From an uncultured bacterium (GTDB lineage Bacteria > Bacteroidota > Bacteroidia > Chitinophagales > Chitinophagaceae), in the NCBI GenBank assembly GCA_903921675.1, contig CAIXQW010000256.1:12958-76957 (forward strand): 64,000 nucleotides of DNA, read 5' to 3'. Positions 7,461 through 63,553 of the stretch are shown here, piece by piece (positions within the stretch are counted from its first letter, which is position 1; every line of letters begins with the position of its first letter). The notes beneath the pieces were generated by a model, which saw only the letters and a list, made by a program, of their open reading frames with translations, was not told where the DNA came from and did no database searches. A program made the translations under genes and the position numbers.

Positions 7461-7540
7461 TAAAATAAAAATTTCCATTTTCACATATTCATAAGTTTTC
7501 AATAGACTATATTTTGCAGATAATAAAGTATTTTTACTGC

Positions 7541-43200: not shown

Positions 43201-43221
43201 TTTAATAAAAAATAAGATACA

Positions 43222-45268: not shown

Positions 45269-45850
45269 TTATTTCTGTTTTACTATCTCCATAAACTCAG
45301 GATATACTCTGCCTAAAACTTTTTGTGTAGCAAACTCTTCATCTACTGCATTGCCACAATACATTTTACGAATGATGCCTTTTTTATCTACCAACATCTT
45401 GGTAGGATAGCCAGACTCTGCTTTTAACTTATCGCATTCTGCTCTGCTTAGTTGTACTATTCTATATTTGGCATCACTATTATTACGCATTTGGGCAATT
45501 ACACTATCGTTTTCGTATGTAAAAACCACCACTTCTATTTTTGTACTATCTTTTAATTTTGCATACAATCTATTCATAGCTTTCATTTCGGCAATGCAGC
45601 CTGCGTAGCTAGCATTTGTAAAATTAATAAATACAAACTTACCTTTTAACTGTTCATTACTAAAAAGAGTATCTGCACTTTTGCCACTAAATGTGGCTAA
45701 TGGTTTACCAATAAGTTTAGTTTCTCTACTATCATTTAATGCTTTTATTTTATTAATAATAGAATCGGCTGGTTTGTTAATCGTTTTGTTTTGACCAAAT
45801 GCGTTGCTGATGCTAAACAATACGATACTTAATAAAATAATTTGTTTCAT
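45269..45850 (-). CDS. secreted TlpA/thioredoxin-fold protein with a degenerate active site (SYAGC instead of WCxxC)
   Basis: Signal peptide ...SNAFGQ. KFVFINFTNASYAGCIAEMKAMNRL aligns to the FWASWCGPCxxEMP region of TlpA/ResA but keeps only the second Cys. Confidence 0.65.
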   Translation of the reverse strand: MKQIILLSIVLFSISNAFGQNKTINKPADSIINKIKALNDSRETKLIGKPLATFSGKSADTLFSNEQLKGKFVFINFTNASYAGCIAEMKAMNRLYAKLKDSTKIEVVVFTYENDSVIAQMRNNSDAKYRIVQLSRAECDKLKAESGYPTKMLVDKKGIIRKMYCGNAVDEEFATQKVLGRVYPEFMEIVKQK

Positions 45851-45905: not shown

Positions 45906-46850
45906 CTATCGATAATCTTTTGTTATAACAATCTTTCCGTTTTCATCAAACTGAAAAAAAGTTATAATGGGTAATGTTTTTGTTTGTTGTTTTTTGATAC
46001 TAAAATATTGGTATATTCCTTTTAGCACATACATTTTATCGCCTACTTTTTCAATCACTGTATTAAAATTTTTCGTGTCGCTGCTTTTTTGCCAAATATC
46101 ATTGTATCTAGTTTCTAGCTCTTCGCGGGTAGGATAACTGATATCCCAATACTGCTCCATGCTTGGTGAAAAATAAGAATAGATTGCATCAAAATTTTGC
46201 GATTCTTCTGCAGCTATTAGGTCATGAATATTTTGTATGTTTTGCCTATCAGCATCCGAGTAATTTTCTTCGGCATTATTCATTTGAAAAATAGAATCTG
46301 CTATTCGCTTTTCTTCGTTTGCCCTACGAATGTTATCTAAATTTGTAATGGCTTGCTCTGATTGTGGATCGGCAATACTTGGTGTGTTTGTAATTTCTGT
46401 AGGAGATGTGCTTGCATCTTCTGATAACTGAGCATTTCTATTAGATTGCATCCACCAAACGCCAAACCCAATCAAACCACCTATTAATAGCACACCCAAC
46501 AAAATAGCAATTGTATTGCTAGATTTTTTTTGCGGCACATAAGGCCTGGCTTGTTGTGTTTGATGCGGCTGCACTTGATGCGGCGAGTATGAAGCAGGCT
46601 GTGCAACAGGTGGCGGAGGTGTTGGTATTGGCGACACGGTGGCTCTGATAGCAGCTTCATACATTTGCTCGTAATTATTGCTATCAACACTGTTTAAATT
46701 CCAACTTGCATACAAATTTTGTAATTGTAGTTGAATATCTTGATCGGATAATGCACTCCATTTTTGTAGCAACTCTTGTGGTGCATTGCTGCCATTGCGT
46801 TGCAAATACAAATAATTAATGTAGCCGCGAATATTTAATTTATTAATCAT
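45906..46850 (-). CDS. bitopic membrane protein B: conserved cytoplasmic N-module, P/Q-rich linker, one TM helix, periplasmic C-domain
   Basis: 314 aa with no signal peptide. The N-terminus NIRGYINYLYLQRNGSNAPQELLQKWSALSDQDIQLQLQNLYASW is paralogous to the N-terminus of the 46867-48075 product. The helix is KK-SSNTIAILLGVLLIGGLIGFGVWW. Confidence 0.6.
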   Translation of the reverse strand: MINKLNIRGYINYLYLQRNGSNAPQELLQKWSALSDQDIQLQLQNLYASWNLNSVDSNNYEQMYEAAIRATVSPIPTPPPPVAQPASYSPHQVQPHQTQQARPYVPQKKSSNTIAILLGVLLIGGLIGFGVWWMQSNRNAQLSEDASTSPTEITNTPSIADPQSEQAITNLDNIRRANEEKRIADSIFQMNNAEENYSDADRQNIQNIHDLIAAEESQNFDAIYSYFSPSMEQYWDISYPTREELETRYNDIWQKSSDTKNFNTVIEKVGDKMYVLKGIYQYFSIKKQQTKTLPIITFFQFDENGKIVITKDYR

Positions 46851-46866: not shown

Positions 46867-48075
46867 TTATAAATTTAAGTTTGAAATATCTGGTAATTTA
46901 CTTTTAATCGTATCTATTAAATCTTCTAAAAAATTATGAGGAATAGCTGGTTGCTTAAAATACATCACTCTGTTTTGTGTGTCTAGCACGCTGTATAGAT
47001 TCATACTTTTACCATTGCAATCATATATACCATACACCTTTTCTTTCGGAAAATATTTAAAAAATAAATCCCCAGTTAAACAATCAGCATCACTTTCTGG
47101 ATTTTCTACTATTCCAATTTTCTTAGGTTTTGCAAAAGAATTTTCTGCAAGATCGCCAAAAAAACGATAATAATAACCATCTGAAAGTCTTGCTATTACT
47201 GCAAAGCGTGTATTAGTAATTATTTCTTGTTTCAAAATACTTGTCAATTTTTTGCGAACATCTTTGCTAGCGCTAGAGCAGGCATTCATGATATATTTGC
47301 CTTGCAAATTATCATCATAACCCAAACTGCCAATGATTACTTTTCTGAAACGCAGCTCTAACTGATTTGCTTCTTCTGCATGTAATTGTCCAAACACAGA
47401 TTTGTATTGTTCAAACTCTTGCTTACTATCAGTTATAAAATTGGCATTTACAAAAGCAATATTTTCATTACTCTTCAATATAAATTGAACGAAATTACCA
47501 GCACCTATCATCACCTTTCTGTGTTTTTTAGGTTTGCCAGTGTTGTCAATTGTTCTTTCGTAAATATTATCATCTACAGCTTTTAATGTTTCAAAGCTTG
47601 GCACATCCATTTTTGTAGGAGGCTGCAAATCCATTCTGCCAATTACTACATTACTATCATTGCGCACACTTAAATTATTGGTGATGGCATATACATTTTT
47701 TAAATTATTAAATAAATAAAATTGATACACAACATAAGCCAATGGAATAAATAAGGCTAGAAAAATTAAACCTGTATAGCTTTTCTTAGGGCTTGGTGGC
47801 ACAATAGGATTTGGCGAAGATGGATAAACCGATTGCGTATTCTTTGGTGATGGAGGTATTACGCCACTTTTATTTTGCAATAAAAATTGCTGAATAGTTT
47901 GCTCTTGCTGTTGGGTAGTATATTGCCAATGCGTAAATAAATTTTGTAATTGAACAGCAATCTCAGCTTCTGGCACCGCTGCCCATTTATCTAACAATGC
48001 TTGCGGCGCTGCTGTTTTATTTTTTTGAAAAAATAAATAACTGATAAACGATATAATATTATTTTTGGTAATCAT
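46867..48075 (-). CDS. bitopic membrane protein A: conserved cytoplasmic N-module, Pro-rich linker, one TM helix, ~290-aa periplasmic domain
   Basis: 402 aa. The N-terminus is NIISFISYLFFQKNKTAAPQALLDKWAAVPEAEIAVQLQNLFTHW and the helix is KK-SYTGLIFLALFIPLAYVVYQFYLF. Its start overlaps the upstream stop as ATGA. Confidence 0.6.
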   Translation of the reverse strand: MITKNNIISFISYLFFQKNKTAAPQALLDKWAAVPEAEIAVQLQNLFTHWQYTTQQQEQTIQQFLLQNKSGVIPPSPKNTQSVYPSSPNPIVPPSPKKSYTGLIFLALFIPLAYVVYQFYLFNNLKNVYAITNNLSVRNDSNVVIGRMDLQPPTKMDVPSFETLKAVDDNIYERTIDNTGKPKKHRKVMIGAGNFVQFILKSNENIAFVNANFITDSKQEFEQYKSVFGQLHAEEANQLELRFRKVIIGSLGYDDNLQGKYIMNACSSASKDVRKKLTSILKQEIITNTRFAVIARLSDGYYYRFFGDLAENSFAKPKKIGIVENPESDADCLTGDLFFKYFPKEKVYGIYDCNGKSMNLYSVLDTQNRVMYFKQPAIPHNFLEDLIDTIKSKLPDISNLNL

Positions 48076-48530
48076 ATTATTTTCTTGGCATTTTCTGTTT
48101 TATCTAACAGTTTTATTAATACATCATTTGGTACAGTTACCGCACCGTTTTTAATTACAAATTGTGCTTGTAAACTTTTATTCGTTTCGTTGTATTGAAT
48201 CAAAAAACCATCTTTGGCTAGATTACATTTTAATAATGCATCATTGCCATTGAAAAAATCTTTTGTTACTTGATTGGCTTGCGTCATGCTTATATTTAAT
48301 TGACTGCTTGTTTTTGCAATAGTTGCCAAAGGTCCATAGGCTTTATTTACCAGCATTACAAATGTATCTACTTTCATTTGGTTGGCATTGTCTTTTTCAA
48401 AACGGTTTTGCTCTACTTTTTCCACATTGCTACTCGCAACACTTTTATTGGTACAAAAAATAAAATAACTAGCTGCTGCAATCACAGCAGCAATTCCAAA
48501 ATAAATAAAGGACGAAATATTTTTTTTCAT
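48072..48530 (-). CDS. N-terminally anchored small periplasmic protein
   Basis: 152 aa. MKKNISSFIYFGIAAVIAAASYFIF is the anchor. Its ATG directly abuts the stop of the 1824-aa gene. Confidence 0.55.
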   Translation of the reverse strand: MKKNISSFIYFGIAAVIAAASYFIFCTNKSVASSNVEKVEQNRFEKDNANQMKVDTFVMLVNKAYGPLATIAKTSSQLNISMTQANQVTKDFFNGNDALLKCNLAKDGFLIQYNETNKSLQAQFVIKNGAVTVPNDVLIKLLDKTENAKKII

Positions 48531-51500
48531 TTATGGTTGATTAAAATAATTAATAAATGAGGCTTGCAAAAACCCTTGATGAATAATTGTACGCAACATG
48601 CCCCAATCAAAGTCTTGTGTATTATCTGTTACAAAATAATACGAAAATACTTTTGTGCCTTGCCCAATATTTTCTGGCTTGGTTAAATCTTTATTAGTAA
48701 TGCTTACTATCAATCTGCGCGAATTACTTGTTTGGCTGCCACCTTCATTAATTGTGCCAGTTTTTGCATAAAAATAATAGCCTGTATGCTGTGCTTTTAA
48801 TGGCGCTAATTGGGTAGCGGTTCCAGCTGTAATTACATCTGCCATGCCTTTAAAAATATTGTTGGCCAAAAATTCGTTGTATTGGGCTCTTGTCCATGTG
48901 CTATCTAGCATCCAAGCAGTGTACTTGTTTTTCTTTGGTAGAATATGTAATTCGTAATTTTTATTTTGTGTCATTAATCCATTATACATCTCTAGCATTT
49001 TGTATGCGGACAGTTGATAAGGATAACCACCAAGTGTAGCAGTTTTTAAACCTAAATTAAAATTTTCGTTGATTTCATTTTTCTTTTTACTACTGATGTA
49101 ATGTCTATTTTTTTGCGGGAAAGCACTCTCTTCTGGAAAACTCCAAATAAAACTACTACTCTTGTTCTTATTTAGTGTAGCATAAATAGTACTGTCAGTA
49201 AAATTAGTTCTACTACTACTTAGCACACTCATATCGTTTTTGTCTTTGTCCTTGCAAGCCAATCCAGCATTTACTTCCAGCCCATTTACCAATACACTAT
49301 TTTCGTTTGCAAAATAAGATTGACCGCTTTTACTTTTATCGCTGCTTGGCCAATTGCCTTTTCCCTTTGCGTAATTAGGCAATGCATATTGCACACCATC
49401 TACAATTACTCTTGGAAATAAATTATTAGCACCGTACTTTGTAGTCAATATATTTTTAACATCTGCATGATGCATACTATCCATAAAATCTGCTTTAGGA
49501 TAGCTGCCTAAAAATAACATTACAGATTGATAATAATTACTAGATTTTCTGATATAATCACTCATGCCTTGCCCATCGTAAGAATCAGCATCTGGCTCCC
49601 AAGGTTTTGCCAATTTTAAACCTGCATAATAATTTTGTTCGCCAAGATTAGTGTAGCTCAATTTCATTTTCTCCCAACCTGCATTTACCTGACTAGCTAT
49701 TACACTAGCCATAAGCGGTTTAATGCTAGAACCTGGTCCAAGATGCATATGAATTAAATTTGCATTTGCCCATTGGTCACGCTCATTGCCAGTATTACTA
49801 AAAAAGAAATGTTTTTGTTGTAAATTATAAATAGCAGTTGCATTGTTAGGGTCTAATTGTTTTCTGTTCTTTACATAGTCATTCATCAATCTAATATTGC
49901 CATCTCCATCCGCTGCTATTACAGTAAATTTCATTTTTCTGCTTTGTCTATTTTTATAAGAATTATGTATTAGTGACTGTGTAGTATTGAACCAATTATA
50001 ATCCAGTGTAATGGCAATATTTTTATTCAATACAGAATCTTGTGTGTATACATTTTTCATCGCATTTGCAAAATGATACATCCAAAAATTATTTTCCTTT
50101 TGCGGATACACTGTTTTGTATTCGCCATTCAGCCATTTATTAGTAGCAAATAATGTAAGATTTTTATTAAACGAAATCTGAAAATGATTAGTACTAGCAT
50201 CTACCATTACTAAATCGTCCGCAGCAATTGTATGCACAAAATTATTAGCCTTTTGCTCCATATTTTTGGTTTGATTTTTGCAAATAGCAATATGTACTGG
50301 TTTGCCAATTTGATTTTGCACATTGATAATACCAATTGGTTCTGTAGCATTTACAAACCATGTTTTTGGCAACAAAGCAAGCTGCACTGCATTTATATTA
50401 TCACTTTTAAAATATGGTAATGCTACTGTAGTATTTATGCTATTACCATAATGTAAATAAGCTGTATTGCTTTCTGAAGGATTGGCTTCTGCAATATTGC
50501 CATTCCACACTTTTATATTTTCAGTAGCAGGCAATTCAAGGTATAAATTTTTATTATACACAGCTTCATATTTTCCTTGGTCATACACAATATACAATGG
50601 GCTGTTAGCACGCAATGCGCTACTCGGATTTTTTTCTAAAGCAGTTAAAATACTTTTGGTGTATATGTCATCTACCTTTTCTGACTTGAAGGTTTTATAC
50701 CTTTCATCAGTTGTTATTTTTTTAATTAAATCTGTGTAGGAATATTTGATGTGCTTGCTTTGCAAACTGTCTTGCAAACTAATAAGCATCTGATTGAAAG
50801 GTCCTTCAATATTTTCTTTGGTTTCGTTTACAATTACATTAAAATTATTATTGTTCAATTCATTAGAGCGCACTGTAGCATAAGCTACTAATACAATTAC
50901 ACCCATTAGTATTAAATATCTACTTAAGCCTAACTGTAAATTCATTTTTTTGGCATTATATGCCACTGGCGATTGTATTAACGTTAAGAAAAATAATAGC
51001 ATTGGCACCAATACACTTACTCTACTTGTTAAACTTAAGAATGGAAAATCTTGCCCAAAAAACACAAAACGATTAGTAGCTGTAAGCCATACAAATAAAC
51101 TAATGGTAAATAAAATAAGTAATGGAATTAATCCTGCATAACTATCTACATCAAAATGCGAAGTATACTCTTCTGCACTATCCAATCGAATTTTGTAACT
51201 CAATAAATAAATAATCATTGGCAATGCAAGCAACACTAATAATAATATCATGGTCATTTGTCCAAGTTCGGAAATAATAAATCTTGCAACAACTACATCA
51301 CGCGTTTGGGTATTGTAGTTTACACCTACCTTGCTAAAAGCACGCAAGTTAATTTGTTTATCATTGTCGTAGGGTTTGGTTATGTAGGTATTGATGAACC
51401 ATTGATTTTCTGCAGTTTCAATAATTTTGCGAGTATTAAAACTATTGTAGGCATTATTAACAAGCAAACTACTAATGGGCTGATGAATGATAGAAGCACG

Positions 51501-54005
51501 AAATTGCACATGTTTAATAGCATCAGTGATTTTTTTATCTGCAACGTTTCTGGTATAAGGAATTAGCAAAATAATAAAATAGATAATAGCTGTTCCTGCA
51601 GAAGCGTAAAATAATTTGCTTTTGTTTTTAAATAAATATAAACATCCTACAACTGCTAAAAGTAATAATAAACCTACCCATAATTTGAATATTAGTAAAT
51701 AATAAAACAGCGATTTAAAACCCAAAATAAATAAATACAATACCAAACCAATTGCACCATAAATCCAATAGTTCCAAGGCTTGGTAAACATTTCTACAAA
51801 TTTGCTATTGCTGCCATCAAATGATTTTTTGAAAAAATTTAGTAATACATTTTTTAGCAATACAAATAATATAAATAAAATGCAAAAGCCTCTATCTGCA
51901 ATGGCAAAAAATAAAATAGTGCTAGCAGTGATAATAAAAGTTGGATTGTAAATAAAATAATAAGCGAATACGCGAATGTACTTTACAACCTTATTTTCTG
52001 GAGCATTGATTGATGGCACGCTGGCCTCAAAATATTGGTTGGCCTTAGCACTAAAAAAATGATAGGATAATAATGGTAAAATTACATCTATAATTCTGCG
52101 CAAAAATTCCACATGAACTATAAAATGCAAAAGCAATAAACCAAGCATTAAGATTACAAATACTTTATTAATATTACTTGGTGTATTTAATTTCCATTTA
52201 TCAGATTTTAAAAGCGTGGTTTCAAAAACTGAAGGCTTGTATTTTTTTAATAAGCGGAATGTAACAAGTGCTGCCACAATGCCTGTAGTAAATAGTAGCG
52301 TTACAGGAAAAGGCAATGCAATGCCAAACAAACTAAAATCGAATCCTATCAATGTATTTTCGAATTCGTATTTAGAAATATTTTCTAAAGGTGGGAAAGT
52401 AGCAATGCGCCAATACATAATAAAGCGCACTATCAGTAGTGCATATACAGCTGTCCAAATAATTGGCTCTATGCGATGCAATTTATTACTGCGTGCAAAA
52501 AATAGCAAGCCACAAAATAATAAAAACAAATAAGTAGCATAACTTATAATTTTATTGTAGCTAAATCCATTATCCGAAAAATCTCTTAATTCAAATAAAT
52601 AATCAACACCAGCATCTTGCGTGCTAAGCCAAAACGATTTATTTATTTTTTTGAAAGATGCACCTTTGTTGACATCTGCATAAGTAGCACTAAGCAAATG
52701 TTGCGGCGTGTGAGAAGTAAATTCCATTTGGCCTTGCACAGCATAATTGCTACGCAGATTAGCATGCGAAAAATAAAACCCTTCTTTTAATGGGTGCGTT
52801 ATTACATCATCATAGTTGGTAGCAATAAAACGAATATGTTTATCGCCATGATGTTGCTGCCCAGGATGCGTCAATAAATAGTTTTGCGGAAAATCAAAAA
52901 CCAAAGCTGTTTTGTTTTCTATCTTATCAAAAAATAATTTTTCGTTGGAATGATTAAACCCAATATGAAATTTTTTGTTGAAGTCTATTGCTGCTTGTGT
53001 AGTAAGATTGGTTGTAGCTTTATTGCCATCTGCCTTTAACGTAAATCCGTTTTCTATACAAGCCTTATCTGGAAATAGTGCATAGGATTTATTTTCTGCT
53101 TCATCATAATTTGCAATCAAATACGTTTCATCCATCTCTGCCAAAATTTGTTCTAGCAAATGTTGCGATTCTGCTTTTTGGCTTTTACAATTTTCTGCTA
53201 CTGCAAATAAATTGTATAGGCTTTTTCCATTGTGCAGTTCTTCATCTTCTATTTCCAAAACATCATTATATGGATTCGGCAAATTTAATTCTGCTAATAA
53301 ATCTGCATCTGCACAATGCAATTGAATCGTATATTTTACATTACGCTTATCATTTCCTTTTAATTTATTCCAAACACTTACATCACTAGTTTGCATATTT
53401 ACATCAATGCTAGTAGTATTGTTTTGCAAACTAAACTGATTGGCAATTTTTGCAGCAAATACATTATTCAATAATTTGTACTTCTTTTCTTTGCCATCAC
53501 TTACTTGCATAAAGATGGGTGTAAATACATTTTGTGTATGTAGGTACACTTTTCCATTTTGTTGCTTGAATTGTATACTACCTTCTGCATGCAAAGAGTC
53601 TGCTTCTGTGTATTGAAAATGCAAATCATTATCAAACCCAATTGCTTTGTTGCTAATGCCGTAATGATCATTATTAAAATACCAAGGCTGGTTGGTACTA
53701 GGATTAATAATTTTTTTTACAGCAATTATCGAAAAAATAAAAACAATTGCAAGCAATGCTAGGCTATACAAATTGGTTCTTTGTTTTGCAAAATTTGCTA
53801 AATGCATCATCGCATTTATATCGCCATTAGGCAATGTACTTGCTTTGGATTGTACTTGCTCTTCTGTAGTTAATTGCAAAATATAAAACACGCAACTACC
53901 TACAATAGCTACTGTAAGCATAGTACTGATGGCATTGCCCAGAAAAAAATTAATTGCTATCAAACCAAGGCTTGCAGCAATTAATCCAATTTTTTTTACA
54001 CTCAT
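48531..54005 (-). CDS. giant polytopic protein: 3 TM helices, ~390-aa ectodomain, SEDS-like multi-TM core, TM anchor, and a class-B-PBP-like ectodomain with a complete transpeptidase motif set
   Basis: 1824 aa. SxxK is GPGSSIKPL (Ser1427, nt 49725-49727), SxN is KSSNYY (1488-1490, nt 49536-49544), and KTG is YAKTGTI (Lys1748, nt 48762-48764). The SEDS-like motifs are TRDVVVARFIISELGQM (nt 51258-51305) and FPFLSLTSRVS. Confidence 0.72.
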   Translation of the reverse strand: MSVKKIGLIAASLGLIAINFFLGNAISTMLTVAIVGSCVFYILQLTTEEQVQSKASTLPNGDINAMMHLANFAKQRTNLYSLALLAIVFIFSIIAVKKIINPSTNQPWYFNNDHYGISNKAIGFDNDLHFQYTEADSLHAEGSIQFKQQNGKVYLHTQNVFTPIFMQVSDGKEKKYKLLNNVFAAKIANQFSLQNNTTSIDVNMQTSDVSVWNKLKGNDKRNVKYTIQLHCADADLLAELNLPNPYNDVLEIEDEELHNGKSLYNLFAVAENCKSQKAESQHLLEQILAEMDETYLIANYDEAENKSYALFPDKACIENGFTLKADGNKATTNLTTQAAIDFNKKFHIGFNHSNEKLFFDKIENKTALVFDFPQNYLLTHPGQQHHGDKHIRFIATNYDDVITHPLKEGFYFSHANLRSNYAVQGQMEFTSHTPQHLLSATYADVNKGASFKKINKSFWLSTQDAGVDYLFELRDFSDNGFSYNKIISYATYLFLLFCGLLFFARSNKLHRIEPIIWTAVYALLIVRFIMYWRIATFPPLENISKYEFENTLIGFDFSLFGIALPFPVTLLFTTGIVAALVTFRLLKKYKPSVFETTLLKSDKWKLNTPSNINKVFVILMLGLLLLHFIVHVEFLRRIIDVILPLLSYHFFSAKANQYFEASVPSINAPENKVVKYIRVFAYYFIYNPTFIITASTILFFAIADRGFCILFILFVLLKNVLLNFFKKSFDGSNSKFVEMFTKPWNYWIYGAIGLVLYLFILGFKSLFYYLLIFKLWVGLLLLLAVVGCLYLFKNKSKLFYASAGTAIIYFIILLIPYTRNVADKKITDAIKHVQFRASIIHQPISSLLVNNAYNSFNTRKIIETAENQWFINTYITKPYDNDKQINLRAFSKVGVNYNTQTRDVVVARFIISELGQMTMILLLVLLALPMIIYLLSYKIRLDSAEEYTSHFDVDSYAGLIPLLILFTISLFVWLTATNRFVFFGQDFPFLSLTSRVSVLVPMLLFFLTLIQSPVAYNAKKMNLQLGLSRYLILMGVIVLVAYATVRSNELNNNNFNVIVNETKENIEGPFNQMLISLQDSLQSKHIKYSYTDLIKKITTDERYKTFKSEKVDDIYTKSILTALEKNPSSALRANSPLYIVYDQGKYEAVYNKNLYLELPATENIKVWNGNIAEANPSESNTAYLHYGNSINTTVALPYFKSDNINAVQLALLPKTWFVNATEPIGIINVQNQIGKPVHIAICKNQTKNMEQKANNFVHTIAADDLVMVDASTNHFQISFNKNLTLFATNKWLNGEYKTVYPQKENNFWMYHFANAMKNVYTQDSVLNKNIAITLDYNWFNTTQSLIHNSYKNRQSRKMKFTVIAADGDGNIRLMNDYVKNRKQLDPNNATAIYNLQQKHFFFSNTGNERDQWANANLIHMHLGPGSSIKPLMASVIASQVNAGWEKMKLSYTNLGEQNYYAGLKLAKPWEPDADSYDGQGMSDYIRKSSNYYQSVMLFLGSYPKADFMDSMHHADVKNILTTKYGANNLFPRVIVDGVQYALPNYAKGKGNWPSSDKSKSGQSYFANENSVLVNGLEVNAGLACKDKDKNDMSVLSSSRTNFTDSTIYATLNKNKSSSFIWSFPEESAFPQKNRHYISSKKKNEINENFNLGLKTATLGGYPYQLSAYKMLEMYNGLMTQNKNYELHILPKKNKYTAWMLDSTWTRAQYNEFLANNIFKGMADVITAGTATQLAPLKAQHTGYYFYAKTGTINEGGSQTSNSRRLIVSITNKDLTKPENIGQGTKVFSYYFVTDNTQDFDWGMLRTIIHQGFLQASFINYFNQP

Positions 54006-54011
54006 ATTGGC

Positions 54012-55079
54012 TTATTGAATCTGATAACCCATGTATGCTAACCCTTGCGGAATAGCCACTTGATTATCTTTTAATATTTGTATGATGGTTTTTATTTCGT
54101 TTGGTATTGCATCTGCAGGTGTAGATGCGCTGATGCTATTTTGCTTTTCTTGTGCAGATAATTGTTCACCTTTCATTTGCTTTACATTATAGTCGTCGCT
54201 ACCTTGGCGGCGCTCTGTTTTGGTATGTGTAATAGCAATGTACTGCACTAATATTTGCATTGCCAAAGAAAGTGCTTCAGACTTTTGTTGTTTATTTAAT
54301 GCCGCTTTTGCAGGGTTTACCAAATTCAATAATGCGTTTTCAAAATAGGCTGCATCTGCATCGCGCACTTCTTTTAGTTGTTGTTGCAAATCGCGCAATT
54401 GCTCTAGCAACCCATGATTAGTAGCTTGCAATTGTACAATTTGTTGATTGGCATTGGTAATATCATGGCTGATAGATGTGTTGATAGATGAATTTTCTGT
54501 ACTAGGATTTTTAGAAGAAGATTTCATTTTTTCTCTAATCAATAAACCAGTTAGCAAAGCTGTAATTCCTGCTAAACTCCAAAGCAATACATCACTATTC
54601 TTTTTTTCTTTTGGTAGCAAATCGCTGCCATATTCTACAGTGGTTTGGTTTTCCGGATTCGCTTCTGAAGTTGGATCAACATTTGCAGTAGCTCCACTTT
54701 CTTTTTCGTTTACAAACTTTATATTGCCTCCTTTATCTGCTGCACGATTGATCAATTGCTCCAACAAAGGCATGCCTGCATATTTTTTTGCATCTACAGT
54801 ATCGTACTGCACTTTTAAATCTTGCTGCTGTGTAGTTGTAAACTGCAATAAATTTACCTTGCCTACATCTACATTATTTTTTGCTCGCCACATATTTTTT
54901 GCATCTTTTGCTATCGAAAACGAGTCGGTATTTATATTGCAAGATATTACACAGTATTTTTCGTTTACACGTATAGATGCATTGTATGGATAATCTTTTA
55001 GCTTGCGCACATGATCGTTTTGTGCTACTACAGTTGTGGCAGAAAATAATGTAAGCCCAATAATAATTCCAAGTTTCAT
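54012..55079 (-). CDS. type I single-pass membrane protein: ~150-aa periplasmic domain, one TM helix, ~175-aa cytoplasmic coiled-coil tail
   Basis: Signal peptide MKLGIIIGLTLFSATTVVAQ and helix VLLWSLAGITALLTGLLI followed by REKMK. Heptad-like QQIVQLQATNHGLLEQLRDLQQQLKEVRD follows. Confidence 0.6.
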   Translation of the reverse strand: MKLGIIIGLTLFSATTVVAQNDHVRKLKDYPYNASIRVNEKYCVISCNINTDSFSIAKDAKNMWRAKNNVDVGKVNLLQFTTTQQQDLKVQYDTVDAKKYAGMPLLEQLINRAADKGGNIKFVNEKESGATANVDPTSEANPENQTTVEYGSDLLPKEKKNSDVLLWSLAGITALLTGLLIREKMKSSSKNPSTENSSINTSISHDITNANQQIVQLQATNHGLLEQLRDLQQQLKEVRDADAAYFENALLNLVNPAKAALNKQQKSEALSLAMQILVQYIAITHTKTERRQGSDDYNVKQMKGEQLSAQEKQNSISASTPADAIPNEIKTIIQILKDNQVAIPQGLAYMGYQIQ

Positions 55080-55098: not shown

Positions 55099-57708
55099 TT
55101 AGAATAATAAATCGTTTGTAGTTGGTGGCGGAGGAGGTGGTGGCGTATTGATATCAAATAACAATGGATTGAAAGTAGTATTAGTTTGTTTGGCAGTAAC
55201 AGGCAATCCTTTTACATCATCATTTAAGCATCTTAAATAATTTGTATTGATATAGTTTGGAAATAATGATGGAACAATCAATTTCAACTCTACTTCATCA
55301 TAATCATGAATTACAGATAATGGAATTATTTTTTCTACTTTGCCTTGCAGCATTCTGCGCACTTTAAAACCTGTGCTTGTAAAATTGATGGTGGCTTTAC
55401 TTGCAGCTTGCACATTATCTGCAATAGATTTATTGCCTAAGTTATAGGCAGTTGCGCCAATAATAAATTCGCTTGTTTGCAAGCCTTCTAACTGCAAGTT
55501 GGCATCTTTTTTTACAAATACTTTTTTATCTGTATTGCTTGCTTCTATGCTACCTACTAAATATTCAAACCACTTTTTGCTGGTCACTTTTGCTTCTTTG
55601 ATTGGCGGCGGGGCTTCGCCTTTTATAATTTGAATTGGGTGCCCAACTACATCTGTATTTTGTTGGATAGATTTATTAAACACACCTTTGATGCAAATAT
55701 CTTTCAGCTCGCTACCAGATAACAATGCAATTTTATTTTCGGCAATTTGCAATCTAGTTTGCAGTTTGCTTTTCATCATAGCGGCTAATGGCGCAAACAT
55801 AAATCCTCTACCTGTAAGCACTACACCATCAAAGTCGTGGTCTGTTTTGTTTTGTTGAATCATGCTAAGATGTGCAATTACTTTTTCGGTAATGGCTTCG
55901 CATACATCATTGATATAGCCAAACAAATCGCCACCAAATTCCATTTGTCCAAGCAAATCTATAATGGTTTGAAAATCTACATCATTGCTTGCTACATTAC
56001 TCCAAGTATTATCTAGTTTTTTTGCATTTGCCCAATCTGCAAATACTACATCTACATTATCTGTTTTAAAATTAAATTTTAGGCGCTCTATTTCTGTATA
56101 AAACTTAGTAATCAAAACCAAGTTATTACCTTTTAGCTCGTCTATAATTTTTGTATTAATATATCTATTCACGCCACTTTGCCCATTACTAGCTTCGCGT
56201 ATGTAATGCAATAGTGTTTCAAAAATTGCATTGGTAATTAAATTACCTGCACCAGCAAATCCGTTTCTATAAATTGGCTGTAGGTCAAAAATATTTTCTG
56301 CGCCTGTTCTAATAATAGAAAAGTCTGTAGTTCCTTTTCCTACATCTACTATTATATAATCTTTGTTTTTATTTACAACTGCGTTTTTTCTATTGATGTA
56401 CCCAATAAAAGAAGCATCGCTTTCAGAGATGGTCAATACTTCCCAAGCTAATAATTTTCCTTTGTAAGCATCGCTATTAGCTAGTTCTGCAAATATTTTA
56501 TTGAGTTGAATTTTTGTGTTTTGAATATTAGCACTGTCATATATATTTGGTACTAATAATAGTAATCTTACAAAACGAGTAGCATTTTTATAACGCAGAA
56601 ATTCTTTTTGCAAGAAGGACTCTAGCATCGTTTTTAAAATGGTATTATTTACTTTTTGTTTTATTTCTTTTAAAGTAAGCGGTAAAGTATGATTGGCAGC
56701 ATCATTAAATTCAAAATTAATACTGCTTAAAATTTCGTTGTGTTGATGAATTATTTTTAGGTTTGGCAATTGATGAAATTTGTTATTCACCAACTCTTGC
56801 ATACTATTGGTATCTATCAATAGTTTTAGATTTTCTGCTTGCGATTTTATAAATTCGCTTGCATCAATATCTTCGTAATTATCTGTAAGATGCTCGCGCA
56901 AAAAGAAAAGTGACTTATAAAAATTACTTCCTTTGTCTTCTTGATAATAACTAGCTTGCTCATTGCGTTCTATCCATTTGTTATTAGTATAAAACAATTT
57001 TATTTGTTGAAATAAATTTTCGATACTTGGCTTATCCTCGTATATCACATTGCCTACTTCGTAACGCTTAGTAGCCATTTGGCTACTTTCGCTACCAAAG
57101 TCTAATGCAATACCCAAAAACTGAGATGGATGCGCCAAAGAAACTCCAATGGCAAATACATACTCTTGTTGGTTTGCATGCAATATTATTTTTACGGCCA
57201 ATTCATTACTTTCAAACAACTGTGCAGTAATAGGTGCAGTATGTACACAACTTAATTGCACACCATTGGCATCGCTGCGTAATTGCACTCCTATTTGCGT
57301 ATTAATATTGCCCAACACTTTTGCTATTATTGGAACCGAAGAAATGATCGGATTTGGCTTTGGTTTTCCTGCAGTAGCATTTAAAATATCTTCGTAAAAG
57401 TGCTCTTTCTTTTTTTCTTCTATAATAGGAGCTTCTTGCTTCAGTAATTGTTCCTTTGCATACAAATGGATAGTTGCTTCATTGCCTAACAAATTACCAT
57501 CTACCTCTATATCGTGTAATGCAATGTCAAATTCATTTTCTACAAAACAAGTAAACATGTTTTTTGCATTTATTTGCATTACTTGCACAGCATCACTATC
57601 TGCTAGTTCTACAATAAAATGTTGCGGATTAGATAGTTTTGCAGCGTTATTAAATTCTGCATTTATTTCTCTGCGATGATTGATAGTAATAGGTATTGCG
57701 TATTGCAT
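55099..57708 (-). CDS. cytoplasmic actin/Hsp70 (ASKHA)-fold ATPase with ~195-aa N-terminal and ~170-aa C-terminal extensions
   Basis: 869 aa with no signal peptide or TM helix. Phosphate-1 is IALDFGSESS (Asp203), phosphate-2 is IIVDVGKGTTDFSII (Asp455), and the adenosine-like motif is GVVLTGRGFMFAPL. The C-terminus is PPPPPPPTTNDLLF. Confidence 0.72.
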   Translation of the reverse strand: MQYAIPITINHRREINAEFNNAAKLSNPQHFIVELADSDAVQVMQINAKNMFTCFVENEFDIALHDIEVDGNLLGNEATIHLYAKEQLLKQEAPIIEEKKKEHFYEDILNATAGKPKPNPIISSVPIIAKVLGNINTQIGVQLRSDANGVQLSCVHTAPITAQLFESNELAVKIILHANQQEYVFAIGVSLAHPSQFLGIALDFGSESSQMATKRYEVGNVIYEDKPSIENLFQQIKLFYTNNKWIERNEQASYYQEDKGSNFYKSLFFLREHLTDNYEDIDASEFIKSQAENLKLLIDTNSMQELVNNKFHQLPNLKIIHQHNEILSSINFEFNDAANHTLPLTLKEIKQKVNNTILKTMLESFLQKEFLRYKNATRFVRLLLLVPNIYDSANIQNTKIQLNKIFAELANSDAYKGKLLAWEVLTISESDASFIGYINRKNAVVNKNKDYIIVDVGKGTTDFSIIRTGAENIFDLQPIYRNGFAGAGNLITNAIFETLLHYIREASNGQSGVNRYINTKIIDELKGNNLVLITKFYTEIERLKFNFKTDNVDVVFADWANAKKLDNTWSNVASNDVDFQTIIDLLGQMEFGGDLFGYINDVCEAITEKVIAHLSMIQQNKTDHDFDGVVLTGRGFMFAPLAAMMKSKLQTRLQIAENKIALLSGSELKDICIKGVFNKSIQQNTDVVGHPIQIIKGEAPPPIKEAKVTSKKWFEYLVGSIEASNTDKKVFVKKDANLQLEGLQTSEFIIGATAYNLGNKSIADNVQAASKATINFTSTGFKVRRMLQGKVEKIIPLSVIHDYDEVELKLIVPSLFPNYINTNYLRCLNDDVKGLPVTAKQTNTTFNPLLFDINTPPPPPPPTTNDLLF

Positions 57709-58087
57709 AATTTGATGAAGTACAATGAAGATATAAAAGTAAATAATAAAAAGGAGTACGGAAGCTTTTTAAGAAAAATTTAGCGAATGAATCTATCTAA
57801 AATTGCTTTCTTTTTTAGTAACTAAACTATTGGTTTTATGTTTATAGACAAGAAGAAACTTTTTTCAGTTATTAAATACTTTAAAAAATACCCGAGCTTA
57901 ATTATGAAAATCTGCATAAATAAGCAACCTTGGCAAGATGCGCATCTTCTTAAAAAGCTTTAAAATCAATAATAGCTTACATTGTGGCTGCTATTACAAT
58001 ACCTCCTCTTCATTTTTTATTCTACTTGATTTTCTATAATTTAAATTCCATGTTGGCTAAATAATTATTAGCAATTAATTGAATTTC

Positions 58088-58095
58088 CAAAAATA
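58088..58095 (-). promoter_or_regulatory. only TAnnTTTG match (TATTTTTG) in the 426-bp region upstream of the ATPase gene
   Basis: The plus strand reads caaaaata. It lies 379 nt upstream of the ATG at 57708 and 39 nt downstream of the eptA-like stop. A chance match is possible. Confidence 0.25.
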
Positions 58096-58134
58096 GAAAT
58101 AAATATTCCCACTAATTGTTTAATGTTTTTTTCA

Positions 58135-59736
58135 TTACTTTTTAATAGGGGTGTATGGGCTACCATTACTCAATGTTCTTGGCTTTTCTATAAATTCTTT
58201 ACAGAATAAGCTTTCTTGCAAAGGCATATTTTTTCCACCTACATTCATCCAGGTGCAAAGTGTGTAAAAAAATCGATGGAGTTGATAGGGTTTTGCTTTG
58301 TTGATTAATAAACTATCTGGCACATTCCAAGTAATAAATGGCACATCATGCAACCACGGATTGCCGCCTTGTGGCGTATGGCCCAAAAAATCTCTATAGT
58401 CATAAATTTCTTCGGCATGGTCGCTAAAGTAGATGGATTGTGTGTTTGGCGTTTTGCTTAGCAAATTAAAAATGCTGTCTAATAAAAAATCATTATACAA
58501 CACAGCATTGTCATATTCGTTTAGCACTTGTCGTTTTACATCGCTATTAGCACATGGAAAAAATTGATGTGTAGTATCTGTGCTATTAAACACATTAAAG
58601 CTTGCAGGGTATCTATTTTTATATTGAAAATGTGTGCCCATTAAATGCAATACTATCAATTTGTTTTGCGCAGTGTCTTGCAAAGCTTTTTGCAGCTCAG
58701 GCATTAATAAAATATCGAATCTATCTTTAGGTTCTATTTTATTTTTTGTGGCATCATCTATGGCAAAATAAGTATGCTTTGCTCTGCTAGTAGCCATGGT
58801 GATAGAATTATAAAAAATACCATCCTTAGCTTGGTTGCTTATCCAAAAAGTTTTCATGCCTACAGCATTTGCGATATCTAAAATATTAGGGCAAGAAAAA
58901 TCGTGAGTAGCATTACTGCCACACGGCATCGTTAGGCATCTACTAAGGCATTCCACAGTACTTGTATTGCTACTAATTACATCTGTAAACAAGCTGATAT
59001 CATTGCGTTTGCTTAATAATGGCGTAGTGTTTCTGCAGTAATTATACATACCAAAATGATGGCGCGAAGTACTTTCTCCAATAATTAAAACATAAGTATT
59101 GCCATGTCCATTTTGCAATTTTTGAAATTGAAATGGAGCTAAAGTTTTTTGCATTTGCACACTATCAATTACAATATTTTTATAATAGGTTTTTAAAACG
59201 TCATTGCCTACGTATTCATCTTTCAAAAAACCTGCCTTATCGCCTTTGGCATTTGCAAAAAATAAATAATAAGAAGCACCAATTAGCAATGTAGAAAAAA
59301 CAATCCATTTTTGTTTTTTAGTAAAAAAATATAGATAATGCTTGCTTCTATAAATAAAAACAATAGCTACTACAATGCCTATCAATACAATAATAATTGC
59401 CCACATTGGTATAGTAGTAACTGTATATTCTACAAGCTCTTGCCAATACGATTCGTATAAAATTTTTAGCGCTAATTCGTTAAATGGGGCATGCTCTTGT
59501 ATATAATGTCCTGTTTCGGTAAGACTCCAAGCAAATGTAAATATGCATAAGATTAACCAAAATATTTTTCTAAATAAAATATTATTTATAGCTGCATAAG
59601 GCAAAAACAAAACGCATAAAAACGAATAATATAAAATGGCTTGCGCTCCTAAATTTCTACCAATAGCAGTGGCTGCAATTATTGGCAAACTAACTAGTAA
59701 AAAAAGTGTAAAAAATCGGATTAGTAAATGTTTCAA
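58135..59736 (-). CDS. phosphoethanolamine transferase (EptA/MCR-related sulfatase-fold membrane enzyme)
   Basis: 533 aa with a TTG start and about 5 N-terminal TM helices. The sulfatase-fold domain carries LIIGESTSRHHFGMYNYCRNTTP, HLMGTHFQYKNRYP and SDHAEE. Confidence 0.78.
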   Translation of the reverse strand: MKHLLIRFFTLFLLVSLPIIAATAIGRNLGAQAILYYSFLCVLFLPYAAINNILFRKIFWLILCIFTFAWSLTETGHYIQEHAPFNELALKILYESYWQELVEYTVTTIPMWAIIIVLIGIVVAIVFIYRSKHYLYFFTKKQKWIVFSTLLIGASYYLFFANAKGDKAGFLKDEYVGNDVLKTYYKNIVIDSVQMQKTLAPFQFQKLQNGHGNTYVLIIGESTSRHHFGMYNYCRNTTPLLSKRNDISLFTDVISSNTSTVECLSRCLTMPCGSNATHDFSCPNILDIANAVGMKTFWISNQAKDGIFYNSITMATSRAKHTYFAIDDATKNKIEPKDRFDILLMPELQKALQDTAQNKLIVLHLMGTHFQYKNRYPASFNVFNSTDTTHQFFPCANSDVKRQVLNEYDNAVLYNDFLLDSIFNLLSKTPNTQSIYFSDHAEEIYDYRDFLGHTPQGGNPWLHDVPFITWNVPDSLLINKAKPYQLHRFFYTLCTWMNVGGKNMPLQESLFCKEFIEKPRTLSNGSPYTPIKK

Positions 59737-61651: not shown

Positions 61652-63553
61652 CTACTCTACCACAAAACCCACTTTTTCCATTGCACTACTTTTTTGCAAT
61701 ACTAAATAATACATTCCTGCTGGCAATGCGCCTTTATTAAAATGAATAGTGTGCTCTCCGCTTTCTAATTCGTTATTCAGTAAATTTTTTAATAACTGGC
61801 CTTGCGTATTGATGATGTAAATATGAATATTTTCTTCAGCGCTTTGTTGCCAAGTAAAAGTAAAATCTTGATAGCCCGGATTTGGATAAACAGTAGCTTT
61901 GCTATTGTTGTTTTTGTAATTGATAACAGCTGCCGGCAATGTGGCATTGGTTAATTGGCTTATCCAAGTATTATAACTAGCCTTGCGCGAATTGTTGCCA
62001 GCATAAGCACCTGCGCACCATACTTCTGGAATTGCCTCGCCATATTTTCGCTGAATGCCTGTGTAATCGCCCCATCTTTCTGGGTTGTTTGGATACTGCG
62101 GAGGGTAAAGCATATTGATAGTGGTATCTCCTTTTTTTAATACAATAGCATTACTAAAATTCATAGCATCATCTATGCTTACAGCACACACTTGTGGGTA
62201 CAAAGCTGTATCGCATTGCAAATAGCAAATTACGGCACTTTTATCTTTTTCTGTAAATCCAAAACTTGCCACTGCAGGATAAGCAAGTACCGTACCTGCA
62301 TTACCAAATGATTTTACACTCGCTTTTTGAGTGCGTAAATCTATGCGACCATATTGTATACCACACCAACCAGTATCTATATTGGCATCAAATGTATAAT
62401 GCAATACGCTATCCAAGAAAAATGCATTTTGCACTACGCTACTGCCTGTGCTAATAGAATCTTTATAGCCAGTTGGTGGGTCGTATATAAATGCATTGGC
62501 ACATACATCAAACTTTGGTACACTATATTGGTAGCTGATTAACTGTGCATTTGGCTCGTATAATTCTTTCGTAATCTGAAAAACATTTACAGCAGTATCG
62601 CCATCTGGCCAATTACTTACAAACCACATATCTTTATTTGCAATAATTGCCTCCCCTAATCCATGTGGTGCAGGCACTATGGTAAAGCCTGGTTTACCAT
62701 CTAAATAATTAATATTACCAGCCCATACTTTATAATTTAAAAAACTTCCTGCACCATAACCATCTGCTAAACTGATTTGATAAATTACAGATTGATTGTA
62801 AGCATAAGTTGGCGCTCCTTTAAATAAGTTTACATTAATAAATAACTCATTATTATTAATACCAATATTTGGATAATCGGCCCAAGAACTATCTGCTAAA
62901 GGATTGCCTGTAATGCCATAAATATTCCAACCTTGCATGGGATTATTGGTTTTACTGTAGGCTATCACTATTTTATTTTTTTTAAAATCTGCAGGTGCTG
63001 TTAAAATAATAGTGATAAATCTATCATGTACATTATCATAAATTACTCTTGGGTCGTATTTTCCGTTTTGGAAATTGGCATTGTTGTTCAAAAAATCGTT
63101 CCATACAATACTGTCTTTTATTATTGTACCTGTATTATCGGCATAAGTTAAATTCCAATTATCTACACTTACTATTCTACCATCGCGGCTAATGGCCATG
63201 CTATTATCTGTTGGCACCAAGCTATGCAACTGATTGCCTTTAAAGTTGATGCCTTGCACAGGGGCAAGTGTTCTTGTTTTTTTTGGTAAAGAGTAGTGTT
63301 GTGTACCTGCTACACGAAGTTTTGCAAATGCCTCTTTTTTCTCTTCTACTCTTGCACTAGTTGGATATAGCTCTACTTCAGCTTCTTTATTTTCTACTAC
63401 TATATTCCACAACTTACCTTGCAAGGTAGCCGCTGTAGTACTTTCTAATAATGGAGTTTGTTGTATAGGCGATGCTTTGCCCACAGCCAATTGTGCATTT
63501 ACAAAAAATGGATGTAAGGAAATACCTACAATAATTGCGAAAACTTTTTTCAT
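61652..63553 (-). CDS. secreted protein with T9SS type A C-terminal sorting domain
   Basis: 633 aa with a signal peptide ending NAQ. The C-terminus is ATVYPNPGYQDFTFTW...AGMYYLVLQKSSAMEKVGFVVE. Confidence 0.72.
   Translation of the reverse strand: MKKVFAIIVGISLHPFFVNAQLAVGKASPIQQTPLLESTTAATLQGKLWNIVVENKEAEVELYPTSARVEEKKEAFAKLRVAGTQHYSLPKKTRTLAPVQGINFKGNQLHSLVPTDNSMAISRDGRIVSVDNWNLTYADNTGTIIKDSIVWNDFLNNNANFQNGKYDPRVIYDNVHDRFITIILTAPADFKKNKIVIAYSKTNNPMQGWNIYGITGNPLADSSWADYPNIGINNNELFINVNLFKGAPTYAYNQSVIYQISLADGYGAGSFLNYKVWAGNINYLDGKPGFTIVPAPHGLGEAIIANKDMWFVSNWPDGDTAVNVFQITKELYEPNAQLISYQYSVPKFDVCANAFIYDPPTGYKDSISTGSSVVQNAFFLDSVLHYTFDANIDTGWCGIQYGRIDLRTQKASVKSFGNAGTVLAYPAVASFGFTEKDKSAVICYLQCDTALYPQVCAVSIDDAMNFSNAIVLKKGDTTINMLYPPQYPNNPERWGDYTGIQRKYGEAIPEVWCAGAYAGNNSRKASYNTWISQLTNATLPAAVINYKNNNSKATVYPNPGYQDFTFTWQQSAEENIHIYIINTQGQLLKNLLNNELESGEHTIHFNKGALPAGMYYLVLQKSSAMEKVGFVVE

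Follow-up and report, generated by a model that had tools for sequence, protein, structure and literature searches.

An Hsp70-like ASKHA protein leads a conserved inner-membrane gene module in Bacteroidota

Introduction

ATPases of the acetate and sugar kinases/Hsc70/actin (ASKHA) superfamily that control envelope machines, such as MreB, FtsA, and PilM, hold a central place in bacterial cell biology, and those known to us are all actin-like. In the MreB-RodZ-RodA/PBP2 and FtsA-FtsN-FtsW/FtsI systems, a cytoplasmic ASKHA ATPase is combined with bitopic adaptors and a transpeptidase of the penicillin-binding protein (PBP) type, while in PilM-PilN-PilO and GspL-GspM an ASKHA gene leads an operon of bitopic inner-membrane proteins, with PilM binding the cytoplasmic N-terminal peptide of its partner PilN. 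This article describes an 869-residue ASKHA protein encoded on the reverse strand of a 64,000-nucleotide stretch of DNA (the window) from contig CAIXQW010000256.1 of an uncultured member of the Chitinophagaceae. It is the sole cytoplasmic and the sole nucleotide-binding protein in a conserved inner-membrane module of five to six members. Its clade is a new one among ASKHA/Hsp70-like proteins, novel both in architecture and in the system that surrounds it. In open-access papers, neither the family nor the module was found to be described.

The module follows the same logic as the MreB and FtsA systems but differs from them in several respects. Its putative ATPase is Hsp70-like and lacks a membrane-targeting helix, its polytopic membrane domain shows no similarity to SEDS proteins and shares a single chain of ~1800 residues with the PBP domain, and the module is patchily distributed, with two copies in some genomes. 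With the PilM and GspL systems it shares an ASKHA-led operon of bitopic inner-membrane proteins, whereas secretin and pilin genes are absent, a PBP-domain giant protein is present instead, and similarity to HofM, the Escherichia coli PilM homologue, is negligible. An earlier sequence-only reading of the window had drawn the comparison with MreB-RodZ, FtsA-FtsN, and PilM-PilN. It holds in that the gene lies in a membrane-protein operon with two bitopic proteins sharing a cytoplasmic N-module, but because the core groups with the Hsp70 nucleotide-binding domain (NBD), the likeness is one of function only.

A predicted ATPase with an Hsp70-like core

The open reading frame (ORF) cannot reasonably be a chance occurrence, since 869 uninterrupted codons would be expected in DNA of 33% GC with a probability of ~1e-29 (an arithmetic estimate), 206 homologues of the protein are found at E<=1e-3, and motif residues remain invariant at 20-36% identity, the range spanned by the 38 family members of the alignment (A7) in which invariance was judged. 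The ATG start is supported by homologues that align from residue 1-3. No hydrophobic segment was found in the protein, which is accordingly taken to be cytoplasmic and soluble. Its architecture, as drawn from an AlphaFold2 model (47 aligned sequences as input, mean pLDDT 83.6, pTM 0.83) together with profile comparisons, is as follows:

57454..57708, (-), residues 1-85: N-terminal beta domain 1 (model, pLDDT 71-95; R12-R13 invariant in the close clade)
57337..57447, (-), residues 88-124: disordered linker (pLDDT <50, non-conserved columns)
57133..57327, (-), residues 128-192: N-terminal beta domain 2 (model)
55669..57120, (-), residues 197-680: ASKHA (Hsp70-like) nucleotide-binding core (distant-relative matches and hhalign)
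57082..57111, (-), residues 200-209: phosphate-1 motif IALDFGSESS (D203, G205, S206, and E207 invariant)
56410..56433, (-), residues 426-433: connect-1 motif TISESDAS (S428, E429, S430, and D431 invariant; aligns with DnaK INEPTAAA)
56311..56355, (-), residues 452-466: phosphate-2 motif IIVDVGKGTTDFSII (D455, G457, K458, G459, T460, and D462 invariant; aligns with DnaK DLGGGTFD)
55786..55827, (-), residues 628-641: adenosine motif GVVLTGRGFMFAPL (G633 and R634 invariant; aligns with DnaK VILVGGQTRMP)
55273..55641, (-), residues 690-812: C-terminal beta-rich domain (model)

As the sequence-only reading had recognized for three of them, the ASKHA motifs are present and correctly ordered. Their key residues, among them the catalytic aspartates D203 and D455, are invariant in all 38 sequences. 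Because the nucleotide-binding and hydrolysis residues of Hsp70 and actin are thus retained across the alignment, the protein is likely to be an active ATPase. The same reading had noted an insert of about 250 residues between the two phosphate motifs. The spacing of 252 residues is real, but the corresponding distance in DnaK is itself ~186 residues (D8 to D194), and the true excess in lobe I is only ~65 residues.

Both structural and profile comparisons place the core with Hsp70. When the model was compared with the PDB by Foldseek, 322 matches were obtained at E<=0.001, the best 50 of which were all Hsp70 or Hsp110 structures; the top match was ATP-bound BiP (6asy, E 8.9e-12), and NBD-only entries reached a TM-score of ~0.6. 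Alignment of the 38-sequence family profile by hhalign gave a probability of 92.8% with E. coli DnaK (E 3.9e-7, 202 columns, DnaK 154-360) and 88.3% with YegD (YegD 205-426), as opposed to 24.3% with FtsA, 8.2% with MreB, and 0.16% with HofM, the last being a divergent representative of PilM. The DnaK alignment spans connect-1, phosphate-2, subdomain IIB, and the adenosine motif, and so covers lobe II only. Since the best 50 Foldseek matches are Hsp70 or Hsp110 and hhalign favors DnaK and YegD, the core is Hsp70-like and not MreB-, FtsA-, or PilM-like. Of the actin/Hsp70-fold ATPase originally proposed, the ASKHA fold therefore stands, whereas an affinity with MreB, FtsA, or PilM does not, the Hsp70 NBD scoring far higher; no sugar-kinase family was matched in Pfam or NCBIfam.

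The likeness to the Hsp70 NBD (that of DnaK, BiP, and Hsc70, and of the NBD-only YegD) lies in the two-lobed ASKHA fold, in a large helical IIB-type region (residues 487-620 of the model, aligned with DnaK subdomain IIB by hhalign), and in a series of shared motifs, namely DxG(S/T), a VP-x-(Y/I)-(F/Y) strand, (N/S)E(P/S)xA, DxGxGT(F/T)D, and (V/T)G(G/R). In the phosphate-2 loop, where Hsp70 has GGGT, the family has an invariant lysine in place of the second glycine (GKGT). Unlike Hsp70, the family also carries the additional residues in lobe I and ~196 residues of N-terminal beta domains, has a C-terminal domain without detectable likeness to the substrate-binding domain (SBD) or lid, is encoded in an operon that contains no J-protein or GrpE, and is tied to membrane-protein genes.

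Sequence searches underline how far the protein stands from described families. No Pfam or NCBIfam model exceeded its threshold for the 869-residue protein. Sub-threshold matches were confined to diol dehydratase reactivase alpha (DDR, PF08841), MreB_Mbl, FtsA, and PRTRC-D, and to ~50 residues around phosphate-2, as was also the case when 47 homologues were scanned singly. For the window protein, the scores were 13.9 bits for DDR (cut-off 24.6), 13.5 for MreB_Mbl (27), and 13 for FtsA (31.8), and among the 47 members these models were matched in 44 (best E 6.8e-4), 24, and 7, respectively. DDR, the most frequent of them, is likewise an Hsp70-like ATPase with inserted domains, but the match is short and lies below the gathering threshold, and there are no diol dehydratase or microcompartment genes nearby. 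The Hsp70 model PF00012 was neither among the matches of the window protein nor among the 25 families most often matched by the 47 members, and NCBIfam gave no Hsp70 match. Searches of PDB sequences with phmmer and with profiles returned nothing significant for the protein.

The core is the sole part kept throughout the family, with distant relatives matching only approximately residues 170-700. The large terminal extensions described in the sequence-only reading are confirmed by the model, which places ~196 residues before the core and ~190 after it. An invariant hydrophobic G-x-P-I-Q-I-I segment precedes the C-terminal beta domain, at the position of the Hsp70 interdomain linker. Structural alignments to full-length, ATP-state Hsp70s (6asy, 5e84, and 4b9q) extend over ~700 columns, at a TM-score of 0.42-0.50 and a root-mean-square deviation of ~11 Å. 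The identity of the C-terminal domain as an Hsp70 SBD was considered and rejected for want of sequence support: its profile reached only 0.09% against the DnaK SBD and had no match among PDB sequences. The HPD motif of J-domains was found in none of the six operon proteins, and no DnaJ or GrpE match was obtained in the Pfam and NCBIfam scans, although such a partner may be encoded outside the operon. As PF00012, SBD likeness, and the HPD motif were not found, and as the family profile has only 425 matches (see below), the protein is not a canonical Hsp70.

The C-terminal tail

A family-wide S/T-L-F/Y-P motif closes the folded part of the protein and is followed by a tail of 5 to ~150 residues. 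In the window protein the relevant features are:

55258..55269, (-): SLFP motif, ending the folded part (P817 invariant family-wide)
55102..55257, (-), residues 818-869: C-terminal tail, predicted to be disordered over approximately its last 30 residues (840-869, pLDDT <50)
55156-55170, (-), residues 847-851: NPLLF, a second copy of the terminal motif
55123-55143, (-), residues 856-862: seven prolines
55102-55116, (-), residues 865-869: terminal NDLLF, with the stop codon directly after it

The protein thus ends in PPPPPPP-TTNDLLF, an arrangement that the sequence-only reading had taken for a flexible linker with a short docking peptide and had likened to the FtsZ C-terminal peptide or to the membrane-targeting ends of FtsA and MinD. 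Within the Chitinophagaceae clade, [N/G/D/S][P/D/E][L/I/Q/M][L/Y/F/K]F forms the end of all full-length proteins examined, at identities of 34-97%, while the linker before this motif is hypervariable in length and sequence and rich in proline, asparagine, serine, and threonine. A terminal motif held constant behind a freely varying linker has the signature expected of a short linear docking motif. Conservation does not include the polyproline, the heptaproline being confined to the window sequence and the relatives nearest to it, and other clades end differently: Emticicia proteins in L-(M/I)-(S/D)-L-L-P-D, many distant clades in acidic-hydrophobic sequences such as DDMWDYL, DDILDDLLS, and EDLMPF, and others nearly without a tail. 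Conservation of the tail therefore extends to the terminal motif within the Chitinophagaceae clade, but not to the polyproline or to other clades.

A membrane-targeting amphipathic helix was not found, the tail being neutral to acidic and predicted to be disordered and the N-terminus being a beta domain. Residues 818-869 include 3 basic, 4 acidic, 9 proline, and 8 asparagine residues, and because the tail is almost devoid of basic residues, a docking peptide is more likely than a membrane-targeting helix. Of the original interpretation, the linker and the docking peptide are retained, and the likeness to FtsA/MinD-type targeting ends becomes less likely. The EEVD tail of cytosolic Hsp70 offers an analogy to a disordered linker with a short conserved end peptide.

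In a few lineages, the terminal motif occurs in tandem, with the copies 12-30 residues apart (NPLLF...NDLLF in the window, SPIYF...GPIYF, and GPMYF...GPLYF). The duplication is present in the window and at three further loci (L019, L021, and L032), all four of which encode two proteins with the N-module described below.

The operon and its membrane proteins

The ASKHA gene heads a tightly packed six-gene operon, in which the successive gaps between it and the five same-strand genes downstream are 19, 6, 0, -4, and 16 nt:

57709..58134, (-): upstream intergenic region of 426 nt, the presumed operon promoter region
55099..57708, (-): ASKHA gene, 869 codons, ATG start, first gene
54012..55079, (-): 355-aa bitopic protein, second gene
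48531..54005, (-): 1824-aa polytopic protein, third gene
48072..48530, (-): 152-aa protein with one N-terminal transmembrane (TM) anchor, fourth gene
46867..48075, (-): 402-aa bitopic protein, fifth gene
45906..46850, (-): 314-aa bitopic protein, paralogue of the 402-aa protein, sixth gene

The leading position assigned to the gene in the sequence-only reading is borne out by the upstream gap, by the tight spacing downstream, and by the gene order of related loci. A scan across the operon for sigma-70 consensus promoters and terminators returned fewer sites than shuffled controls. The base composition of the operon is that of the rest of the window.

The three bitopic proteins present two orientations. 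The 355-aa protein has a signal peptide, a periplasmic part of ~140 residues, a TM segment at 163-181, and a cytoplasmic coiled-coil followed by a helical C-terminal domain, and so lies in the membrane in the direction opposite to that of the other two. The 402-aa protein consists of a cytoplasmic N-module of ~55 residues, a Pro-rich linker, a TM segment at 103-121, and a periplasmic domain, and the 314-aa protein has the same layout, from N-module through Pro-rich linker and single TM segment to periplasmic domain. The N-modules of these two proteins are 50% identical over 50 residues (E 3e-14), and N-module proteins are encoded downstream in all Chitinophagaceae-clade loci with enough flanking sequence.

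The 1824-aa protein comprises three N-terminal TM segments, a beta-rich domain of ~380 residues, ~14 further TM segments, and a C-terminal region of ~780 residues. The last contains a predicted class B PBP-type transpeptidase domain whose catalytic motifs are intact (S1426-x-x-K1429, S1488-x-N1490, and K1748-T-G), these SxxK, SxN, and KTG motifs being invariant from Chitinophagaceae to Prevotella and Flavobacteriaceae. Of 15 close members, 7 matched the transpeptidase model PF00905, with a best E of 1.5e-6; the model is recorded in precomputed annotation for 8 of 17, and it scores 21-22 bits with the orthologues of Prevotella and Dyadobacter. An alignment with FtsI is in register over TLD, DxxG-I-AM, DPN, and PGSxxKP, at a weak hhalign probability of 0.95%. 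The domain was not found by searches of PDB sequences with a whole-protein profile or with the C-terminal 485 residues. Given this null result and the weak FtsI score, the assignment rests on the Pfam matches in homologues and on the invariant motifs. Both large soluble parts of the protein are predicted to be periplasmic, on the grounds of the positive-inside pattern and of the location that a PBP domain must have.

The membrane domain carries motifs that are invariant across the phylum and are predicted to lie on the periplasmic face: WR-x-(A/S)-(T/V)-F-x-P at ~532-539, A-x-(N/G)-(Q/H)-W at ~865-869, TQ-x-x-D at 899-903, and GQDFP-x-(L/I)-S at 984-991. When the TM region was used as a search profile, the sole matches were two fragments from the giant-protein family itself, with no outside relatives. 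One metagenomic fragment of 148 residues (cluster P0309, corresponding to residues ~739-886) bears the JGI name 'ArnT-like glycosyltransferase', and was the source of an ArnT lead that is taken up below.

Distribution and conserved gene order

Searched exhaustively with the family profile, 1.84 billion representative proteins yielded 425 matches at E<=0.001 and 309 at E<=1e-30. With so small a count, the profile would not appear to extend to Hsp70, MreB, or sugar-kinase families, which are abundant, and by its sequence the family forms what looks to be a self-contained, isolated clade, specific to Bacteroidota. A scan of one genome per species gave 98 matches, all on Bacteroidota-type contigs. 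Carriers include Chitinophagaceae (Taibaiella and Edaphocola), Emticicia, Runella, Persicitalea, Lacihabitans, Dyadobacter, Prevotella and other Bacteroidales, Winogradskyella, and Spongiimicrobium. Entries in the databases are called 'hypothetical protein' or carry only the name of the superfamily, as do two family members that NCBI labels 'acetate and sugar kinases/Hsc70/actin family protein'; one giant-protein homologue is named 'FtsI/PBP2'.

The partnership of the ASKHA gene with the giant-protein gene is kept across this range. In almost all loci with sufficient flank, tblastn places a homologue of the 1824-aa protein on the downstream side of the ASKHA gene, at a distance of 1-6 kb, and the ASKHA gene is upstream in every related locus that has both. 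In seven phylogenetically distant loci mapped by ORF, the ASKHA gene was the first module gene in all seven, as was the position of the second gene (that of the 355-aa protein) filled in all seven, and the full order was complete in most: an ASKHA protein of 760-1000 residues, a bitopic protein, a polytopic protein of ~1750-1860 residues, a single-TM protein of ~150-180 residues, and a bitopic protein of ~330-410 residues. The N- and C-terminal domains of the ASKHA protein are not conserved in distant clades, although the giant-protein partnership is. The flanks of the module hold ordinary chromosomal genes that differ between species.

Several further features of these loci were observed. Emticicia sp. 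W12TSBA100-4 (L037 and L059), the Emticicia metagenome-assembled genome (MAG) NI281 (L036 and L065), and a Lacihabitans MAG (L054 and L061) each carry two divergent module copies on different contigs, one of an 'Emticicia type' and the other of a 'Spirosomaceae type', with only ~27% identity between them, which suggests paralogous, specialized machines. In Spirosomaceae-type loci, the ASKHA protein is ~990-1007 residues long, with an extra N-terminal extension of ~300 residues, and directly upstream of its gene are a sigma-70 region-4 gene and a gene for a single-TM, anti-sigma-like TPR protein (7270-9127 of Dyadobacter locus L074; 7666-9226 of Persicitalea locus L050); the pair hints at stress-induced expression. 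Four Chitinophagaceae- or Emticicia-type operon copies (L023, L026, L038, and L041) are on contigs labeled 'uncultured Bifidobacterium sp.', 'Chitinophaga pinensis', or 'Cyanobium sp. NIES-981'. Proteins under the 'Chitinophaga pinensis' label are 87-89% identical to those of Emticicia agri, and the oddly labeled contigs are probably mis-binned or mislabeled MAG contigs.

In the window itself, a gene for a 193-aa protein of the AhpC/TSA-redoxin family with a signal-like N-terminus (45269-45850, (-)) follows the 314-aa gene at a distance of 55 nt; it could be the seventh member of the operon, but it was not found with the module in other loci. On the other side, a gene for a sulfatase-family membrane protein (58135-59736, EptA-like by layout) separates the operon from a fatty-acid hydroxylase family gene (PF04116; 59958-60776, (+)). 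A gene of the latter family is also found near the operon in Taibaiella lutea (L002, 9282-9893), and this recurrence may reflect either synteny between the two or a functional tie to the lipids of the envelope. Farther out, ordinary Bacteroidota markers flank the operon, including a 633-aa protein with a type IX secretion system C-terminal sorting domain, DUF2480, and a DUF6029 and Omp28 pair (61652-63553, (-), and 41623-44091, (+)). These markers and a GC content of 30-39% are consistent with a chromosomal, Chitinophagaceae-like origin.

A model for the module and the alternatives to it

The model that we favor, and to which we give roughly an even chance of being correct, is that the 869-aa protein serves a new envelope machine as its ATP-gated subunit on the cytoplasmic side. 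Its starting points are the observed fold, the motif conservation, the Hsp70-like placement, the conserved gene partnership, and the intact PBP motifs. Binding and hydrolysis of ATP would open and close the two lobes in the manner of Hsp70, and this motion would gate the binding of the coiled-coil tail of the 355-aa protein, of the N-modules of the 402-aa and 314-aa proteins, or of both. Gated binding would in turn switch or assemble the periplasmic enzyme complex, so that the direction of control would run from the cytoplasm outward, coupling cytoplasmic energy or state to the synthesis or remodeling of an envelope polymer, the substrate probably being of the peptidoglycan type. The disordered linker and its x-x-L-L/Y-F-COOH peptide could act as a tether or docking motif that holds the ATPase on its partner, comparable to the eukaryotic Hsp70 EEVD tail.

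Several of the results weigh against this model. ATP hydrolysis and all of the protein-protein contacts in it are predicted. The terminal motif is clade-specific, and the tails of some clades are only 5-15 residues long, so the tether could not be essential to the core function of the family. Nor do motif copies track the number of N-module proteins, as 10 loci with one copy also encode two such proteins, a comparison that is confounded by phylogeny. With respect to the giant protein, the window's own 1824-aa protein, scanned by itself, has no PF00905 match, and Foldseek with the model of residues 1-1200, the confidence of which is moderate (AlphaFold2, pLDDT 63.8), gave no PDB match below E 0.86. 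Two candidate identities for the membrane domain were rejected on hhalign probabilities, SEDS at 0.14% with FtsW and GT-C/ArnT at 0.25% with E. coli ArnT. As the membrane domain has matched nothing, any view of the module as a synthase rests on the PBP domain and the conserved periplasm-facing loops. That more ambitious view, in which the whole module is a Bacteroidota-specific envelope-polymer synthase consisting of a non-SEDS, non-GT51 polymerase fused to a class-B-type transpeptidase and gated by an Hsp70-like ATPase through bitopic adaptors, is accordingly put forward as a doubtful proposition.

The resemblance of the operon to the MreB and FtsA systems also admits a cytoskeletal explanation, according to which the protein would polymerize like actin into membrane filaments that position the PBP-bearing synthase via RodZ-like bitopic N-termini. 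An ASKHA fold and a PBP-type transpeptidase do occur in one operon, the 402-aa and 314-aa proteins do have a RodZ-like layout (a small cytoplasmic N-domain, Pro-rich linker, TM segment, and periplasmic domain), and there are sub-threshold Pfam matches to MreB_Mbl and FtsA. We nevertheless regard filaments as distinctly improbable, since hhalign puts DnaK and YegD far above MreB, FtsA, and HofM, the best Foldseek matches are Hsp70 and Hsp110, helices 487-620 align with DnaK IIB, and a basic amphipathic membrane-targeting helix is lacking; furthermore, we know of no Hsp70-type domain that forms functional filaments. The Hsp70 affinity that counts against filaments could equally be taken to indicate a dedicated chaperone or assembly factor, whose C-terminal beta domain would bind unfolded or hydrophobic segments during biogenesis or insertion of the 1824-aa protein. 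The ~700-column Foldseek alignments exceed the NBD, such that the C-terminal domain may occupy the place of SBD-beta, the G-x-P-I-Q-I-I segment is at the interdomain-linker position, and the gene two places downstream would supply a very large polytopic client. This explanation is unlikely all the same, in view of the absence of sequence likeness between the C-terminal domain and the SBD or any PDB entry, the low full-length TM-scores with their large deviation, and the lack of an HPD motif or GrpE-like match; moreover, the C- and N-terminal domains are not conserved in distant clades, although the giant-protein partnership is.

Several ASKHA adaptors in envelope machines act mainly as scaffolds, and a catalytically inert protein that bridges membrane proteins, as in the cytoplasmic domain of GspL and some PilM proteins, would suit the multiple extra domains and the docking-type tail. 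The invariance at ~20% identity of the phosphate-1 Asp, the connect-1 Glu, the phosphate-2 Asp, Thr, and Asp, and the adenosine Gly would be unexpected for a pseudo-enzyme, however, and makes this very unlikely. The least credible of the explanations, with only a slender chance, is that the module serves in anti-phage defense or some other conflict, or that the ASKHA protein phosphorylates a small molecule such as a sugar or acetate. Patchy distribution, two paralogous modules in some genomes, and hypervariable linkers could be read in the former sense, and the generic superfamily name that NCBI attaches to two members in the latter. Against a conflict system, PADLOC matched neither the ASKHA nor the giant protein, and its matches to the 355-aa and 314-aa proteins were weak and non-specific (E ~3e-4 to 7e-3), the base composition is window-like, and the flanks are ordinary chromosomal genes that differ between species; against a kinase, no kinase family appeared in the Pfam and NCBIfam scans and the structural neighbors are Hsp70s.

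Significance

The module is compact and is present in cultured genera (Taibaiella, Edaphocola, Emticicia, Dyadobacter, Runella, and Winogradskyella), which renders the model of an ATP-gated envelope machine directly testable. Should the synthase view prove true, the module would constitute a third architectural solution for the building or remodeling of peptidoglycan, or of a related wall polymer, and the first case of an Hsp70-type ATPase as a stoichiometric regulator of a cell-wall enzyme. If the coupling between the cytoplasmic protein and the periplasmic enzyme is real, it would widen the known roles of Hsp70-type domains, provide a new cytoplasmic route by which wall enzymes are regulated, and give the Bacteroidota, among them rumen and oral Prevotella, a further possible target or sensor of beta-lactams.

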